A DNA stretch of 64,000 nucleotides, taken from assembly GCF_988242995.1 (NCBI RefSeq), contig NZ_OZ547043.1; one strand, given 5' to 3'. Below are positions 1,882 through 48,175 of the stretch, in pieces. Made by a program: the position numbers and the translations under genes. The notes below the pieces were generated by a model that saw nothing but the letters and a program-made list of their open reading frames with translations, was not told the origin of the DNA and did no database searches. Position 1 is the first letter of the stretch; the number at the start of each line of letters is the position of its first letter.

Positions 1882-3321
1882 ATGTCAGTACCCGTTCAAC
1901 ATCCTATGTATATTGATGGACAGTTTGTTACCTGGCGTGGAGACGCATGGATTGATGTGGTAAACCCTGCTACAGAGGCTGTCATTTCCCGCATTCCCGA
2001 TGGTCAGGCCGAGGATGCCCGTAAGGCAATCGATGCAGCAGAACGTGCACAACCAGAATGGGAAGCGTTGCCTGCTATTGAACGCGCCAGTTGGTTGCGC
2101 AAAATCTCCGCCGGGATCCGCAAACGCGCCAGTGAAATCAGTACGCTGATTGTTGAAGAAGGGGGTAAGATCCAGCAGCTAGCTGAAGTCGAAGTGGCTT
2201 TTACTGCCGACTATATCGATTACATGGCGGAGTGGGCACGGCGTTACGAGGGCGAGATTATTCAAAGCGATCGTCCAGGAGAAAATATTCTTCTGTTTAA
2301 ACGTGCGCTTGGTGTGACTACCGGCATTCTGCCGTGGAACTTCCCGTTCTTCCTCATTGCCCGCAAAATGGCTCCCGCTCTTTTGACCGGTAATACCATC
2401 GTCATTAAACCCAGTGAATTTACGCCAAACAATGCGATTGCATTCGCCAAAATCGTCGATGAAATAGGCCTTCCGCGCGGCGTGTTTAACCTTGTTCTGG
2501 GGCGTGGTGAAACCGTTGGGCAAGAACTGGCGGGTAACCCAAAGGTCGCAATGGTCAGTATGACAGGCAGCGTCTCTGCAGGTGAAAAGATTATGGCGAC
2601 TGCGGCGAAAAACATCACCAAAGTGTGCCTGGAACTGGGGGGTAAAGCACCGGCTATCGTAATGGACGATGCCGATCTTGAACTGGCAGTCAAAGCCATC
2701 GTTGATTCACGCGTCATTAATAGTGGGCAAGTGTGTAACTGTGCAGAACGTGTTTATGTACAGAAAGGCATTTATGATCAGTTTGTCAATCGGCTGGGTG
2801 AAGCGATGCAGGCGGTGCAATTTGGTAACCCCGCTGAACGCAACGACATTGCGATGGGGCCGTTGATTAACGCCGCGGCGCTGGAAAGGGTCGAGCAAAA
2901 AGTGGCGCGCGCAGTAGAAGAAGGGGTGAGAGTGGCGTTGGGTGGCAAAGCGGTAGAGGGGAAAGGATATTATTATCCGCCGACATTGCTGCTGGATGTT
3001 CGCCAGGAAATGTCGATTATGCACGAGGAAACCTTTGGCCCGGTGCTGCCAGTGGTCGCATTTGACACGCTGGAAGAGGCTATCGCAATGGCTAATGACA
3101 GTGATTACGGCCTGACCTCATCAATCTATACCCAAAATCTGAACGTCGCGATGAAAGCCATTAAAGGGCTGAAGTTTGGTGAAACTTACATCAACCGTGA
3201 AAACTTCGAAGCTATGCAAGGATTCCACGCCGGATGGCGTAAATCCGGTATTGGCGGCGCAGATGGCAAACATGGCTTGCATGAATACCTGCAGACCCAG
3301 GTGGTTTATTTACAGTCGTAA
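1882..3321 (+). CDS. aldA: lactaldehyde dehydrogenase (NAD-dependent aldehyde dehydrogenase A)
   Basis: 479 aa; aldehyde dehydrogenase motifs (ELGGKAP, catalytic Cys region GQVCNCAERVYV); recognised as AldA. Confidence 0.95.
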   Translation: MSVPVQHPMYIDGQFVTWRGDAWIDVVNPATEAVISRIPDGQAEDARKAIDAAERAQPEWEALPAIERASWLRKISAGIRKRASEISTLIVEEGGKIQQLAEVEVAFTADYIDYMAEWARRYEGEIIQSDRPGENILLFKRALGVTTGILPWNFPFFLIARKMAPALLTGNTIVIKPSEFTPNNAIAFAKIVDEIGLPRGVFNLVLGRGETVGQELAGNPKVAMVSMTGSVSAGEKIMATAAKNITKVCLELGGKAPAIVMDDADLELAVKAIVDSRVINSGQVCNCAERVYVQKGIYDQFVNRLGEAMQAVQFGNPAERNDIAMGPLINAAALERVEQKVARAVEEGVRVALGGKAVEGKGYYYPPTLLLDVRQEMSIMHEETFGPVLPVVAFDTLEEAIAMANDSDYGLTSSIYTQNLNVAMKAIKGLKFGETYINRENFEAMQGFHAGWRKSGIGGADGKHGLHEYLQTQVVYLQS

Positions 3322-38509: not shown

Positions 38510-39109
38510 ATGATTAAGGTGTATGGCGTACCCGGATGGGGCTCTACAATCAGTGAGCTGATGCTAACACTGGCTGATATCCCTTATCAGTTCGTTGGTG
38601 TCAGTGGTTTTGACCACGAGGGAACTTCACGCGAGTTATTGAAAACCCTGAACCCGTTGTGTCAGGTTCCGACACTGGCGCTGGAAAATGACGAGATTAT
38701 GACGGAGACAGCGGCGATTGCATTGATGGTTCTCGATCGTCGCCCGGACCTTGCGCCACCGCTTGGGCGCGCCGAACGTCAGCAGTTTCAACGGCTATTG
38801 GTCTGGCTGGTTGCTAATGTCTATCCAACGTTCACTTTCGCCGATTACCCTGAGCTTTGGGCTCCTGACGCGCCTGAACAGTTAAAGAAGAATGTTATTG
38901 AATATCGTTTTATATCTGGTTGAATTCGCAGCTCACTGCTGAACCTTATGCGTTTGGCGATCAGCTACCCTTATCTCTGCGTTATGCGCATATGGGGACC
39001 GGGGCATGAATGGTTTCAAGATAATGCCGCGAATATCAGTGCGATTGCTGATGCTGTATGTCCGATACCAACGTTACAAGAAATACTAAAAAGGAATGCC
39101 ATTATTTAA
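38510..39109 (+). pseudogene. yncG: glutathione S-transferase-like gene yncG, disrupted by frameshifts
   Basis: N-terminal GST-like ORF ends prematurely at 38923 (137 aa); downstream sequence continues GST-like in two other frames (…YIWLNSQLTAEPYAFGDQL… then …YLCVMRIWGPGHEWFQDNAANISAIADAVC…), implying at least two indels. Confidence 0.7.
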
Positions 39110-39329: not shown

Positions 39330-40685
39330 AGGGCAGAGCGGTAGCGTATCAGGGAAAAAGCATGAAAGCCCGCGCCCCACAAGACTTTGGTGAATGATGA
39401 ATTTTTAAATCGCGACATTACTTTTATCGTAAAACCCATCATGTTGATCTTTTTTTTCGATCAATTTGACCATCTTATTTCAGTGTGATCTTATCCTTTC
39501 TTTTTGATGGATAGCACACCATGAACGGACTAAGCCTTTTGGATCAAATTTCAATTATTCACGATTATCGCCAGTCCTGGAAAACCAGTTACAGCCTGGC
39601 GGATATCCTTTTTCTGACGATCACCGCCATTATCGGTGGCGCTGAAGGATGGGAAGAAATTGCTGATTTTGGTGAGGAGCATCTGGAATGGTTACGCCTG
39701 TATGGTGATTTTGAAAATGGCACCCCCTCCCATCACACGATTGCCCGAGTGATGGGAATGATTTCAGCAAAACAATTACAGCCCCTTTTTATCCAGTAGA
39801 TGAAGGACTGTCACACGTTGTCTGAAGGCTCTGTTGTGGCGATTGATGGTAAGTCATTACGGGGTACTTACGATAAATCGAAACGTAATGCCGTGATCCA
39901 TAGGGTCAGTGCTTTTAGCGCAGAAAATCGTCTGGTTTTGGGGCAGGTGAAAACAGGGGCAAAATCGAATGAGATAACGGCGATCCCGGAACGGCTCCAG
40001 TTGCTGGAATTAAAAGGGTGTCTGGTCACGCTGGATGCAATGGGTTGCCAGCATATAATCGCCCGTGAAATTCTGAAAAAGAAAGCCGGTTACCTGCTGG
40101 CGCTGAAAGGAAATCAGGGAAAATTAGCGGAGGCGTTTGATAACGGGTACTCGCCGACAATGTGGCTGGGTGAGAGGTATGACAGTTACAGCACGCAGGA
40201 AAAAGGGCATGGACGGGAAGATACACGATGCTGCATTGTGAGCCATGATTTAACCGCTCTGGGTGATTTAGCTTATGAATGGTCAGAGCTGAGCACGATA
40301 GGAATAGTGCTGGCGAGCAGACAGGAAGGAGAAACAGCGGTGAAATCAGAGAAGTGTATTCTTCGCTACTACATAAGTTCGGTGACGCTTACGGCGAAAG
40401 AACTCCTGGAAGCAACACGAGCACACTGGTCGGTAGAAAATCAACTGCACTGGCGACTTGATATGGGGATGCGGGAAGATGAATGCCAGATTGTTCGTGG
40501 AGAAGCGGGAGAAAATCTGGCAGTTTGTCGACATATCGCGATGAATTTACTGACCGCAGAGAATAGCTTTAAAGCGGGTATTAAACGCAAGCAAAAGCGG
40601 GCAGGACGTAAGAATGAATACCTTTCTCTAATCCTTGCTGGCTGCGGGCCTTCATGATTTCGCCCTGCGGTTAGAGGTTAATTAT
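39330..40685 (+). mobile_element. H-repeat (ISAs1-family) element, copy 1 (ends approximate)
   Basis: ~100-bp conserved upstream block (ATGAAAGCCCGCGCCCCACAAG...CATCATGTTG) shared with the second copy at ~46100; transposase-like ORF; similar sequence just after both stop codons. Confidence 0.6.
39521..40657 (+). pseudogene. H-repeat-associated (ISAs1-family) transposase interrupted by in-frame amber codon
   Basis: 92-aa and 285-aa ORFs are in the same frame, separated only by TAG at 39797-39799; combined 378 codons, same length as the intact paralog at 46358..47494. Confidence 0.75.
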
Positions 40686-44000: not shown

Positions 44001-45290
44001 ATACGGATGCACGACGAGCGGACGCACCACTACCATTACGACAGCCAGCACCGCCTGGTGTTCTACACGCGGATACAGCACGGCGAGCCACAGGTGGAGA
44101 GCCGCTACCTCTATGACCCGCTGGGCCGCCGGACGGGGAAACGGGTGTGGCGGCGGGAGCGTGACCTGACGGGGTGGATGTCGCTGTCGCGTAAACCGGA
44201 GGAGACCTGGTACGGGTGGGACGGTGACAGGCTGACGACGGTACAGACCGGCACCACGCGTATCCAGACGGTATACCAGCCGGGGAGCTTCACGCCGCTC
44301 ATCAGAATCGAAACAGAGAATGGTGAACAGGCGAAGGCGCGGCACCGGAGTCTGGCGGAGGTGTTGCAGGAGGACACGGGGGTGACGCTACCGGCGGAGC
44401 TGTCGGTGATGCTGGGGAGGCTGGAGCGGGAACTGCGCGCGGGTGCGGTGAGTGCGGAGAGTGAGGCATGGCTTCAGCAGTGCGGGCTGACGGCGGAACA
44501 GATGAAAAACCAGATGGAGGCGGAATACATCCCGGAGAGGACACTTCATCTTTACCACTGCGACCACCGGGGGCTGCCGCAGGCGCTCATCAGCCCGGAA
44601 GGGGAAACGGCGTGGCAGGGGGAGTATGACGAGTGGGGAAACCTGCTGGGCGAAACCAGCGCGCAGCAACTGCAACAGCCGTACCGTCTGCCGGGGCAGC
44701 AGTATGATGAGGAGTCGGGGCTGTACTATAACCGCAACCGGTACTATGACCCGTTGCAGGGGCGGTATATCACCCAGGATCCCATTGGGCTAAGAGGTGC
44801 ATGGAACCTGTATCAGTATCCATTGAATCCAACTACTAAGATAGATCCGTTGGGTCTCTCCGGAGAAGATTCCATAGAGCAGTCAGGTCCATCTTGGTTG
44901 ATTGCTGACCCCATGGATAAATACAGACAACAGGCAGTGATGGGTTTAACAAAATTGTGGGATGATACCTTTAGTCAAGAGAAGACTAAATGTTTACCTA
45001 CGACACCTGAAAACATCAGGATGGTTGTGGCCAACAGTCCCTTGTTGACAGTACAACAAAAAGTCTCAGTACCCGTAGTAGCTCACTACGTACAAATGCT
45101 GGAAGATGGTAGTGGAGCACCACCGGTTGATATGGATGGGAATGTGATTGTTAATGGTAATCACAGGATGGTTGCGGGTCTGTTATGTGATAAACTTCCT
45201 CCTGAGCGGCCAGGTACGCGTCCATTATCGGCACCACTATATCCGTTTAGCCAAATTTTTCCGGAGTTAGATGATTGGGGGAATAGATGA
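41079..45290 (+). CDS. Rhs-family polymorphic toxin, full length (PAAR-like N-terminus, YD-repeat shell, DPxGL boundary, variable C-terminal toxin tip)
   Basis: 1403 aa; N-terminus [12 protein letters not shown]...GVACSVCPN; many YD repeats; conserved core end ...[33 protein letters not shown] (ends 44858); GC-rich core, AT-rich tip after 44858. Confidence 0.95.
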
Positions 45291-45772
45291 TAAGAATCGC
45301 GTTTTTAATAACCAATAAATTTCTTGATATAGATAGTACCACTCTTGCTGGATATGATTTTAGCGGGATGGATCTACATCGTGCCATCCTCAATGGTTAT
45401 TGTCTTGATGGGGCGAAATTTGAAAATTCCCATTTAAGAAATGTAATGATTCAACATACATCAACTAGAAATGCTGTCTTTCGCAATGCGGCTCTGATGA
45501 ACGCTATTCTTAATAACTCAGATTTCACTGGAAGTGACTTTAGTAATTCAAGGTCAATAGGTGCAAACTTTGAGGGTGCTATATTAACTAATTCAACCTT
45601 TTGCAATGCAGACGTTAAAGATTCAAATTTTTCTGGTGCTGACTTATGTGGCGCTAATTTATTATGTGATAGATATGGCGATATAAATATAACAGGTGCA
45701 TTATTCGATAAAAACACCTCATGGTTAGAAGGTTTTGATCCTATAGCTCATGGGGCTATATTAAAAATATGA
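45287..45772 (+). CDS. pentapeptide-repeat protein, putative cognate immunity protein of the Rhs C-terminal toxin
   Basis: 161 aa; start overlaps rhs stop (ATGA); consecutive A(D/N)(L/F)xx pentapeptides ([40 protein letters not shown]...); AT-rich like the toxin tip. Confidence 0.8.
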
Positions 45773-46064: not shown

Positions 46065-47520
46065 GGGTGTCCGGCGTATAGCAGACATCAGGATAAAAGT
46101 ATGAAAGCCCACGCCCCACAAGGCTTTACCGGATGATGAGTTTTTAAACTACGACATTACTTTTACAGTAAAATCCATCATGTTGGTATTTTCTCTCGAA
46201 CAATTTGACGATCCACGGAAAGATCACGTAACGCTGCTTTTTTGTACTAGACAATTCGCATTTTATGTTTAACAATTGAGATATTCCTCATTACCTGAAG
46301 CTGTTTTTTATTGCGTATACATGATCAAATACTCCTTACATAATTAAGGAGAACAAAATGGAACTTAAAAAATTGATGGAACATATTTCTATTATCCCCG
46401 ATTACAGACAAGCCTGGAAAGTGGAACATAAATTTTCGGATATTCTACTGTTGACTATTTGTGCCGTTATTTCGGGTGCAGAAGGCTGGGAAGATATAGA
46501 GGATTTTGGGGAAACACATCTCGATTTTTTGAAGCAATATGGTGATTTTGATAATGGTATTCCTGTTCACGATACCATTGCCAGAGTTGTATCCTGTATC
46601 AGTCCTGCAAAATTTCACGAGTGCTTTATTAACTGGATGCGTGACTGCCATTCTTCAGATGATAAAGACGTCATCGCAATTGATGGAAAAACACTCCGGC
46701 ATTCTTATGACAAGAGTCGCCGCAAGGGAGCGATTCATGTCATTAGTGCGTTCTCAACAATGCACAGTCTGGTTATCGGACAGATCAGGACGGATGAGAA
46801 ATCCAATGAGATTACAGCTATTCCAGAACTTCTTAACATGCTGGATATTAAAGGAAAAATCATCACAACTGATGCGATGGGTTGCCAGAAAGATATTGCA
46901 GAGAAGATACAAAAACAGGGCGGTGATTATTTATTCGCTGTAAAAGGAAACCAGGGGCGGCTAAATAAAGCCTTCGAGGAAAAATTTCCGCTGAAAGAAT
47001 TAAATAATCCAGAGCATGACAGTTACGCAATTAGTGAAAAGAGTCACGGCAGAGAAGAAATCCGTCTTCACATTGTTTGCGATGTCCCTGATGAACTTAT
47101 TGATTTCACGTTTGAATGGAAAGGTCTGAAGAAATTATGCGTGGCAGTCTCCTTTCGGTCAATAATAGCAGAACAAAAGAAAGAGCCAGAAATGACGGTC
47201 AGATATTATATCAGTTCTGCTGATTTAACCGCAGAGAAGTTCGCCACAGCAATCCGAAACCACTGGCACGTGGAGAATAAGCTGCACTGGCGTCTGGACG
47301 TGGTAATGAATGAAGACGACTGCAAAATAAGAAGAGGAAATGCAGCAGAATTATTTTCAGGGATACGGCACATGGCTATTAATATTTTAACGAATGATAA
47401 GATATTTAAGGCAGGGTTAAGACGTAAGATGCGAAAAGCAGCCATGGACAGAAACTACCTGGCGTCAGTCCTTGCTGGGTGCGGGCTTTCGTAATCTTGC
47501 CCTGCGCCAAAGATTCCATA
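46065..47520 (+). mobile_element. H-repeat (ISAs1-family) element, copy 2 (ends approximate)
   Basis: conserved upstream block homologous to copy 1; intact transposase ORF. Confidence 0.6.
46358..47494 (+). CDS. ydcC: H-repeat-associated (ISAs1-family) transposase, intact (YdcC-like)
   Basis: 378 aa; [52 protein letters not shown]...; clearly related to but diverged from the copy at 39521..40657. Confidence 0.85.
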
Positions 47521-47539: not shown

Positions 47540-48175
47540 ATGAATAAAGGTAATAGATTACAACAGTTAGAAGATGCGTGTCGTGATATTATTAAAATTA
47601 ACATGTGGTATGAACTCCCCGATTATGTATTTTTTTCAATATCTGACACCATCGATGGGACGAGTGATGAATTTGCAATAAATGTGTATAAAAATATCGA
47701 TAAAAGTCTTCTTGAAATATTATTGCATCCATCTGTTTTACTGTCAGTTGTTGAGTCCTTACAAAGTAATACTATAGCTGAGTATATCGTGAAATTGTCT
47801 GGAATAGAGATGAATTATGACGACTTGCTAATATCGGATGTTAAGTCATGTCTTTTTATCAACTATGGATTCAATAACAGTGAATCGGTTGCGCTATTTA
47901 ATAAGATTTGCCGCGAATTAAAAGACATTGTAAAATCATCAAGAGTACATATAGATCATGAGAAAGATATTTTTGATGGCCTTAATCAAATCTTGGCTTT
48001 TTCCGATAATAATAAACGTGAGTATTTTTTATATATAAAGGCATATTGGCTCAGTTTATACTTTTGTGAAATTTCACAGAACGTGAGAGAAAGAGATAAG
48101 TTGTCATTTTATTATAATGAATTTTCTGTCCGATTTCCTAATGTTGTCCTATATCCGTCATGCTACAAATTGTAA
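47540..48175 (+). CDS. hypothetical protein (211 aa), AT-rich, no TM segments
   Basis: ORF track; AAGG 7 nt upstream of ATG; very low GC; no recognisable family. Confidence 0.5.
   Translation: MNKGNRLQQLEDACRDIIKINMWYELPDYVFFSISDTIDGTSDEFAINVYKNIDKSLLEILLHPSVLLSVVESLQSNTIAEYIVKLSGIEMNYDDLLISDVKSCLFINYGFNNSESVALFNKICRELKDIVKSSRVHIDHEKDIFDGLNQILAFSDNNKREYFLYIKAYWLSLYFCEISQNVRERDKLSFYYNEFSVRFPNVVLYPSCYKL

Follow-up and report, generated by a model that had tools for sequence, protein, structure and literature searches.

The C-terminal tip of an Escherichia coli Rhs protein as a probable ParB/sulfiredoxin-fold toxin with a pentapeptide-repeat immunity partner

This paper concerns the C-terminal tip of an Rhs protein encoded in a 64,000-nucleotide stretch of DNA (contig NZ_OZ547043.1 of NCBI RefSeq assembly GCF_988242995.1, called here the window), which RefSeq genomes 100% identical to it place on the chromosome of Escherichia coli, at the rhsE-position locus ansP-yncG ... 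yddH-nhoA. On balance, we think that this tip is the warhead of an Rhs toxin: a minimal ATP-dependent enzyme with the ParB/sulfiredoxin (ParB/Srx) fold, held in check by a pentapeptide-repeat immunity protein. The evidence lies in the fold, in the conservation of a motif, in membership of a protein family, in a polymorphic-toxin context, and in the pairing of that family with genes for pentapeptide-repeat proteins or HAD phosphatase-like proteins.

The context is easily told. Residues 1–1260 of the Rhs protein are matched by the NCBIfam model RHS_core with 2510 bits, YD repeats and Rhs_assc_core are matched as well, the N-terminus carries DUF6531 and a weak match to a PAAR motif (E = 0.26), and in the identical E. 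coli genomes the protein is annotated as "RHS element core protein." As in other Rhs polymorphic toxin–immunity modules, the core ends in DPxGL (here, DPLGL), a variable tip of low guanine–cytosine (GC) content follows, and a small open reading frame (ORF) lies directly downstream. The GC fraction drops at DPLGL, the Rhs core being at about 0.65, the tip at about 0.45, and the gene after it at about 0.35, and the downstream ORF starts inside the rhs stop, in an ATGA overlap at 45287–45290. An earlier note on this DNA had described a tip after DPLGL with a ParB/Srx-like motif, and that description was accurate: the 143-amino-acid tip is the exact translation of 44859–45290, and NGNHRMVA lies at 45153–45176. 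Of 5426 complete E. coli genomes, 143 have the tip together with the downstream ORF (at least 99% identity, and 100% in all of the matches listed), and 3211 match the adjacent core sequence; polymorphic Rhs tip/immunity cassettes usually behave in this way.

Is the motif more than an accident of letters? The bare core, G.HR..A, is meaningless alone, because about 1.5 copies are expected per six-frame translation of the shuffled window. The extended motif, P[VI].[VM]...[IV].[DNE]G.HR..A, appeared in none of 30 shuffles and once in the window; the stronger argument that it is real is that it forms the conserved core of a protein family. A word-indexed homologue search gave short fragments only, and it was an exhaustive search of 1.84 billion representative proteins that revealed this family, with 329 relatives at E ≤ 1e-3 and 117 at E ≤ 1e-10—a family, that is, of at least 329 representative sequences. 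In that search, matches begin at about tip residue 40–50; they span about residues 40–143, and in 142 of 156 aligned stretches they end no more than one residue from the C-terminus of the protein. In every case, the domain is found at the C-terminal end of its carrier, which is an Rhs, CdiA/DUF637, or Gram-positive toxin.

Conservation across 147 aligned domains is high in the box itself, in tip numbering: G100 (146) and R103 (142), the P-motif glycine and arginine of the ParB/Srx (ParB-CTPase) superfamily, together with H102 (146) and A106 (139). Q66 (143), S70 (144), Y77 (124), G84 (135), and I97 (135) are also kept, and in alignment A1, G100 is invariant and R103 is present in at least 90%. 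The residue before the glycine is D in 103, E in 35, and N in 8; the third position of the box is N in 86% and H in 9% (13 of 147); and the consensus of the 147 domains reads T..I...L....TxQxxVSxPxVxxYVxxLxxGxxxPPIKVDGNxIVDGNHRYIAG...P...PGT...P...I..D..DWGN. A motif-pattern scan of 100,044 species genomes returned 80 loci, among them loci from Neisseria, Aggregatibacter, Pseudomonas, Achromobacter, Budvicia, Bacteroidota, Bacillota, Myxococcota, Planctomycetota, and Actinomycetota. The pattern required [DE]G[NH]HR[YMF] preceded by I[VI], which biases it toward canonical members, and with it no locus turned up in Erwinia, Providencia, Proteus, or K. grimontii—an absence that is uninformative, and indeed expected, because the characterized toxin ToxB (discussed below) fits the [DE]G[NH]HR[YMF] part but has Y-I-S where the pattern needs I[VI].

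The fold had to be approached through structure. The tip alone has no match in Pfam (even at E ≤ 10), in NCBIfam, in PADLOC, or, with phmmer, in the Protein Data Bank (PDB); Pfam run on 72 aligned members returned scattered noise only and no ParBc; and the matches of the family profile to SRP54 and FolD among PDB sequences were set aside as chance, with no ParB found there. An AlphaFold2 (AF2) model built from the 72-sequence alignment reaches a predicted local distance difference test score (pLDDT) of 94 and a predicted template-modeling score (pTM) of 0.86, the lowest block being tip residues 36–45, the first ten of the domain-only alignment, with a mean pLDDT of 70. The elements of the model run in the order helix, strand 1 (tip residues 68–70), helix 1 (71–82), strand 2 (90–93), strand 3 (96–99), helix 2 (101–109), and strand 4, with G100-N-H-R103 at the start of helix 2. 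This is the beta-alpha-beta-beta-alpha core of the ParB/Srx topology, with a GxxR box where the helix after the hairpin begins.

The best structural matches of the model are phosphotransferases. The figures of the structure comparison, as listed, are 5.7 for Arabidopsis sulfiredoxin, 5.6 for Atu1540, 5.5 for SbnI, 5.2 for free serine kinase (SerK), 4.9 for human sulfiredoxin, 4.7 each for PadC and KorB, 4.3 for pNOB8 ParB-N, and 4.0 for Spo0J. Foldseek against AFDB50 finds family members with E down to 1e-21, and UniProt names many of them "ParB/Sulfiredoxin domain-containing protein" or "ParB-like nuclease domain-containing protein." When set against sulfiredoxin with hhalign, the family falls in the expected register, GNHRY on GCHRY and PPVDM on PPIDV, so that the ...PPIDV...FGGCHRYAA of Srx lies against the ...PPVDM...NGNHRMVAG of the tip. 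(The human Srx sequence used was validated by its 100% match to a named sulfiredoxin-1 with PF02195, and we do not count this alignment as independent proof of the fold.) Like sulfiredoxin, SerK, and SbnI, the tip is a single domain without a DNA-binding module; unlike the tip, those three are housekeeping ATP-dependent phosphotransferases and not toxins, and the catalytic Cys of Srx is Asn in the tip. We regard the modeled ParB/Srx fold as well supported at the level of structure and weak at the level of sequence. The earlier note had read the motif as ParB/Srx-like and the tip as a possible nuclease or nucleotide-binding toxin; the fold half of that reading is supported at the structural level, and the nuclease option is weakened by the behavior of ToxB (no detectable DNA cleavage or SOS induction), by the isoelectric point (pI) of 5.2 of the E. 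coli domain, and by the HAD partners described below.

The closest characterized relative is ToxB, a toxin of the ParB-CTPase fold found at the C-terminus of rare CdiA proteins: it has the same fold and the same P-motif, belongs to a different sequence family, and has an unrelated immunity protein. The findings on ToxB given here come from a preprint by Kaljevic et al. (bioRxiv 10.64898/2026.05.05.722872). In its 2.4 Å structure, the phosphate box G105-N106-H107-R108 contacts the ATP phosphates; ATP binds with a dissociation constant of about 87 µM, and about 300 ATP are hydrolyzed per hour; R108A and G105A lose toxicity, and R108A also loses ATP binding and ATPase activity; E104 is listed as a pocket-stabilizing contact only, not as catalytic. 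The toxin causes no detectable DNA cleavage or SOS induction and instead gives nucleoid compaction and segregation defects without DNA damage, for which its authors name topoisomerases and structural maintenance of chromosomes (SMC) complexes as candidate targets; ATP depletion does not account for the toxicity. A dimer of the immunity protein iToxB binds ToxB and occludes its active site. ToxB was identified through PF02195, in 52 of 68,709 species.

For our comparison, we took four ToxB sequences from the gBlock table of the preprint, whose recovered translations agree with every residue number cited there, and compared them over the first 112 residues only, the C-terminal third lying outside. 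The NGNHRMVA of the tip aligns with E104-G105-N106-H107-R108-M-V-A of ToxB (12 columns in hhalign, P = 5.5e-6; the reversed control gives 0.31), and the shared P-motif can be written (D/E)-G-N-H-R-(M/Y)-(V/I)-A. Both domains occupy the C-terminal toxin position of a polymorphic toxin, both are about 100–150 amino acids long with no helix-turn-helix (HTH) or dimerization domain, and both have an immunity gene immediately downstream. Membership of the tip in the ToxB family itself was rejected: there is no domain-wide homology, D75, M76, and Y81 included, over those 112 residues (7–11 bits). Upstream of the box, ToxB has Q60...D75-M-x3-N-Y-R...E-G88 and a long hairpin, whereas the tip family has Q66-x3-S70...Y77...G84 and a short one; the essential W134 of ToxB, which falls in the uncompared C-terminal third, has no clear counterpart in the tip family; and ToxB is rare and CdiA-borne, whereas the tip family is broad and mostly Rhs-borne. 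The immunity proteins differ too. As a stand-in for iToxB, we used an ORF of Pantoea soli, 108 amino acids long and without pentapeptide repeats, which follows an orphan ToxB module on a plasmid and whose H43/N44/H47/H57/Q65 equal the published H48/N49/H52/H62/Q70 at a constant offset; against this iToxB of about 108 amino acids, the tip family has pentapeptide-repeat or HAD partners, and iToxB-type immunity for the tip was rejected, the window having a pentapeptide-repeat protein instead. On that plasmid (NZ_CP032703.1, 1962–2585 of our locus L085), the orphan ToxB C-terminal fragment and iToxB-like ORF adjoin a SymE type I toxin gene, and the iToxB-like ORF is misannotated as "zinc ABC transporter substrate-binding protein."

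The presumed immunity protein of the E. coli tip, 161 amino acids long, matches Pfam PF00805, PF13599, and PF13576, and its NCBIfam and PDB matches are to QnrB1/Qnr, MfpA, Alr5209, and designed beta-helices. It consists of tandem A(D/N)LXX repeats, which AF2 predicts to form a regular right-handed quadrilateral beta-helix with a strand every five residues and a pLDDT above 90. It thus shares the five-residue beta-helix and the repeat family of Qnr, MfpA, McbG, and AlbG; it differs from them in its length of about 160 amino acids, in its caps (N-terminal MIxI...LHRA and C-terminal TxWPxGFxPxxxGAI), and in being genetically coupled to a toxin rather than conferring resistance to gyrase poisons. 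In a census of 82 related loci, a pentapeptide-repeat ORF lies directly downstream of the toxin in 60, from many phyla, and in three distant relatives (with Rhs, CdiA-type, and Bacteroidota carriers), the homologous ORF of about 160 amino acids overlaps or abuts the toxin stop. This immunity family is diverse (median identity 33%) and acidic (median net charge −7, pI 4.8); the toxin family has a median pI of 8.5, and the toxin domain of E. coli, too, is acidic (net charge −3). Most likely, this protein sequesters the toxin, and we infer direct binding because immunity to polymorphic toxins generally works so. An Rhs C-terminal toxin of Stenotrophomonas rhizophila, called "Tse6" and of unknown function, is likewise paired with an immunity protein of pentapeptide-like type, Tsi6a, whose orthologues occur in Actinomycetes and Planctomycetes (bioRxiv 10.64898/2026.07.13.738213), phyla in which the tip family is found as well; Tse6 may belong to the same toxin family as the E. 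coli tip. At four loci (L009, L072, L059, and L033), the ParB-like toxin domain is split over two ORFs or reduced to a short orphan fragment and the pentapeptide-repeat gene is intact, which fits with immunity genes outliving their toxins.

Not every relative keeps this partner. The remaining loci of the census comprise 7 with a HAD_SAK_2-like ORF on the same strand, 2 with a 118-amino-acid HAD-like ORF, 2 with too little downstream sequence, and 11 with no recognized same-strand partner, two of which have a convergent HAD_SAK_2-like gene abutting the toxin. The smaller HAD protein (116–118 amino acids) belongs to the "...IQP" Rhs sub-clade, where it is present in all four members with an intact downstream gene, two of them added metagenomic members. 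Its motifs I–IV (VDVDDT, CWS, KP, and DDQ) are invariant across 6–8 sequences, and three libraries agree on baculovirus 38K and viral phosphatases as its nearest families, through weak matches to TIGR01684 (E = 1.6e-6), DUF705 (E = 9.7e-5), and 38K in the PDB (E = 0.028); designed TIM barrels, its top PDB matches, were disregarded as low-complexity helix matches, 38K alone fitting the other libraries. The Bacteroidota-type partner matches HAD_SAK_2 (PF18143) with E = 1.5e-22. Both sister-clade partners carry the HAD motifs (I, DxDxT/V; II, S/T; III, K; IV, DD) and are putative phosphatases.

The individual HAD loci vary in arrangement. At the four "...LQIQP" loci, the HAD ORF lies at 1173–1529 (L010), 348–704 (L035), 2716–3063 (L088), and 2772–3125 (L090), replacing the pentapeptide-repeat gene and, in the last three, overlapping the toxin stop. 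Nine Bacteroidota loci are two-gene modules in which a stand-alone ParB-like protein of about 126 amino acids (IKVDGNxIIDGHHRYVAS), without a trafficking domain, is paired with a HAD_SAK_2 protein of about 155; seven are same-strand (L062, L063, L075, L076, L077, L081, and L084, with the toxin at about 2440–2830 and the partner at about 2845–3320) and two are convergent (L032 and L066). These modules look like a cytoplasmic toxin–antitoxin pair of kinase/phosphatase type. In L033, L045, L050, and L059, which come from the giant sulfur bacteria Thiomargarita, Parabeggiatoa, and related Gammaproteobacteria, a small HAD gene on the minus strand, with no toxin of its own upstream, is convergent to a toxin and pentapeptide-repeat pair.

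How might such a domain kill? After delivery, the tip would be released from the Rhs shell at DPLGL, and its domain of about 100 residues would bind a nucleoside triphosphate (NTP), most likely ATP, with the G100-N-H-R103 box, where helix 2 begins, holding the phosphates and the Q66/S70/Y77/G84 segment contacting the base and ribose. That segment is the probable equivalent of the base/ribose-side "C-motif," its correspondence to ParB Box I and to D75–G88 of ToxB being drawn from spacing only. The domain would then hydrolyze or transfer the gamma-phosphate, and such activity, not DNA cleavage, would poison the target cell, the producer being protected by the cotranslated beta-helix protein, whose most probable role is to bind the toxin so that the active site is blocked. 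ATP is the likely ligand because the GNHR box is identical to that of ToxB, and hydrolysis or transfer of the gamma-phosphate would be the toxic act. We favor an ATP-dependent enzyme over a DNase because ToxB does not cleave DNA, because the E. coli domain is acidic, because the best structural matches are phosphotransferases, and because in sister clades the place of the pentapeptide protein is taken by two unrelated partners resembling HAD phosphatases; since their catalytic residues are intact, the product of the toxin would most simply be an erasable phosphomonoester.

Several points weigh against this account. Ligand and activity would be carried over from ToxB, a relative at the level of the fold only, whose lethal mechanism its own authors left open (bioRxiv 10.64898/2026.05.05.722872), and the family hidden Markov model scores the four ToxB homologues at 7–11 bits through the P-motif only (...I-S-E-G-N-H-R-M-V-A-A). 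N99 of the E. coli copy occupies a position that is D or E in 94% of the family. No significant match came from Foldseek against the PDB, Pfam ParBc (PF02195) matches 0 of the 72 family members at E ≤ 0.1, and hhalign against Srx gives a probability of 13–24% (P about 1e-3, reversed control 0.14), albeit in the correct register; the profile search against ParB/Srx families by which the earlier note had proposed to check itself would, in other words, have come close to failing. Last, in an AF2 model of toxin, linker, and immunity protein fused together with a paired alignment, both domains are confident, but the pTM is 0.64 and the interface is not resolved.

What, then, are the alternatives? 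One is less a rival to the ATP-dependent enzyme than a refinement of it: the tip, a true phosphotransferase like sulfiredoxin, SerK, and SbnI, would phosphorylate a specific essential substrate—a protein, a nucleic-acid end, or a metabolite—the slow ATPase of ToxB would be uncoupled hydrolysis without that substrate, and immunity would work by HAD reversal in some lineages and by pentapeptide-repeat sequestration in others, E. coli included. The invariant catalytic motifs of the HAD protein in four of four intact "...IQP" loci, its kinship to viral phosphatases such as baculovirus 38K, the nine Bacteroidota pairings of a ParB-like gene with HAD_SAK_2, and the small HAD genes beside toxin and pentapeptide-repeat pairs in four further loci all point this way, as does ToxB, with its 300 turnovers per hour, its toxicity not explained by ATP depletion, and its mechanism left open. 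Against these stand the facts that no substrate is known, that HAD-fold proteins could be plain binding inhibitors, that the Bacteroidota stand-alone proteins are only 23–30% identical and may not be toxins, and that a HAD gene is missing from the E. coli locus; we hold the refinement to be a serious possibility, though not one we would bet on. The bolder statement, that the tip family and ToxB are the first ParB/Srx-fold kinase toxins, spending ATP to phosphorylate an essential target that is conserved, and countered by beta-helix sequestration in E. coli and most lineages or by HAD phosphatase erasure of the phosphate mark in the "...IQP" sub-clade and the Bacteroidota modules, we offer tentatively, as rather unlikely. 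Quite different is the idea that the tip is a metal-dependent, perhaps NTP-regulated, nonspecific nickase or DNase. Some pentapeptide-repeat proteins, MfpA and Qnr for example, mimic DNA; the immunity protein, which resembles them, would on this idea be a mimic of B-DNA that fills the DNA-binding groove, and the charges of the two families (pI 4.8 for immunity, 8.5 for toxin) would suit such an arrangement. The support from charge is weak, because the E. coli toxin domain (net −3, pI 5.2) is acidic like the immunity family, which is not what one expects of a nonspecific DNA binder, and the domain has no HTH or other DNA-binding module. DNase activity has been reported for ParB/Srx domains (Osa, some ParB-methylases, and GmrS), and for Tox-ParB a nuclease function had been predicted (PMC3482391; PMC5512222); Zhang et al., however, call the grounds for the ParB nuclease label weak (PMC3482391), ToxB shows no genomic DNA cleavage or SOS response with the same active-site box, and a nuclease would fit poorly with the HAD phosphatase partners of the sister clades, all of which makes a DNase improbable. 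The HAD partners point to phosphotransfer rather than DNA cleavage.

Two further alternatives touch the partner and the state of the locus. Known pentapeptide-repeat resistance proteins protect gyrase, and one might suppose that the protein in the window, like Qnr, MfpA, McbG, and AlbG, shields an ATPase that works on DNA, such as gyrase or topoisomerase IV, as the target of the toxin, without ever binding the toxin itself. Its weak matches to Qnr, MfpA, and McbG-like proteins, the lack of a confident interface in the fused AF2 model, and the compaction of nucleoids by ToxB without DNA damage, with topoisomerases and SMC complexes among the candidates of its authors, would agree. The similarity, however, is at the level of the repeats only, the protein (about 160 amino acids) is shorter than Qnr and MfpA (183–218), its family has diverged alongside the toxin (median identity 33%), to which it is coupled in translation, as one would expect of a specific binder, and polymorphic-toxin immunity proteins, iToxB among them, characteristically bind their toxins; we consider such target protection very unlikely. 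We give hardly any credence to the notion that the E. coli copy has lost its activity or is decaying, and persists only as a cassette for recombination. It would draw on N99, which is shared by only 8 of 147 family members, on the ISAs1 copies that flank the locus, one of them disrupted, and on the K-12 rhsE at the same position, which is a pseudogene. Both the 1403-amino-acid ORF and the immunity ORF are intact, however, and at least 99% identical in 143 complete genomes; every other conserved residue is present; N at position 99 recurs in several unrelated lineages; and the equivalent E104 of ToxB is a pocket-stabilizing contact, not a catalytic one.

How does the ATP-dependent enzyme that we favor relate to the ParB-fold toxins predicted long ago? 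Zhang et al. predicted Tox-ParB and Tox-ParBL1 in 2012 on RHS, filamentous hemagglutinin, MafB, and type VII secretion system carriers, the former with a strongly conserved DGHHR and with Imm20, Imm27, and SuFu as immunities, the latter with a conserved N-terminal Ser/Thr and a [NT][RT][RT] box that is mostly N-R-R; the paper makes no mention of pentapeptide or phosphatase immunities (PMC3482391). The tip family shares with both a phyletic spread over Proteobacteria, Bacteroidetes, Firmicutes, and Actinobacteria and the conserved Arg of a DGHHR-like box, and with Tox-ParBL1, it shares a conserved N-terminal Ser, like S70 (144 of 147). Identity with Tox-ParBL1 is ruled out, because the box of the tip family is N-H-R, with H in 146 of 147, and not N-R-R. 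With Tox-ParB, the carriers match (Rhs, CdiA, and Gram-positive), whereas the box of the tip family is DGNHR and its partners are pentapeptide-repeat or HAD proteins; this comparison was made by published description, not by alignment, so that overlap between the two is possible.

ParB-fold polymorphic toxins are already known, and relatives of the tip are already annotated automatically with the superfamily; the fold assignment itself is not new. What appears to be undescribed is a GNHR family that is distinct from ToxB and missed by PF02195, that is broad, mostly Rhs-borne, and has a member in E. coli, and that has a near-universal pentapeptide-repeat immunity partner with HAD phosphatase-like alternatives. 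Toxin domains of the ParB fold were predicted in 2012, and only in 2026 was ToxB characterized; E. coli would now carry a second ParB/Srx-fold toxin family, far more widespread than ToxB and invisible to Pfam, in a native toxin–immunity pair that is easily studied. The alternation of a binding-type partner with two unrelated HAD partners is a comparative-genomic clue. It suggests phosphotransfer as the toxic act, in preference to DNA cleavage or a simple depletion of ATP, and if these are kinase toxins, the HAD partners would offer a direct handle on the substrate of ParB-fold toxins. Pentapeptide-repeat proteins, best known as DNA-mimicking protectors of gyrase, would join the conserved immunity families of polymorphic toxins.

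Table 1. Features of the Rhs toxin locus, with their positions in the window
Feature	Position	Strand	Basis
Rhs toxin gene, 1403 amino acids	41079..45290	+	ORF list; RHS_core match
DPLGL core/tip boundary, Rhs residues 1256–1260	44844..44858	+	RHS_core and Rhs_assc_core models end here
Tip linker or pre-toxin segment, tip residues 1–45	44859..44993	+	Kept only in closest relatives
Predicted ParB/Srx-fold toxin domain, tip residues 46–143 (Rhs 1306–1403)	44994..45287	+	
Q66-x3-S70 ... Y77 ... G84 segment, strand 1 and helix 1	45054..45110	+	Conservation; predicted secondary structure
P-motif N99-G100-N101-H102-R103-M-V-A106 (Rhs N1359–A1366)	45153..45176	+	Position confirmed; family conservation
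Pentapeptide-repeat protein, 161 amino acids, presumed cognate immunity	45287..45772	+	Pfam; overlaps rhs stop
ISAs1-family (H-repeat) transposase, 378 amino acids, intact, 3' boundary of the Rhs element	46358..47494	+	ORF list; annotation in RefSeq twin

The neighborhood of these features holds a few smaller observations. A second ISAs1-family (H-repeat) copy lies upstream of the Rhs unit at 39521–40657, split into ORFs of 92 and 285 amino acids and annotated as a pseudogene in the RefSeq twin, so that two copies bracket the unit. Directly past the downstream copy, at 47540–48175 (+), is a very AT-rich ORF of 211 amino acids (GC 0.30–0.32), annotated as "hypothetical protein" in 193 E. coli genomes and without a match in NCBIfam and PADLOC scans; an orphan immunity gene is one possibility, a leftover of an older Rhs cassette another. 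On the other side, at 38510–39109 (+), the yncG glutathione S-transferase gene is apparently split into ORFs of 137 and 53 amino acids, and in an identical genome, it is annotated as frameshifted, with an internal stop.

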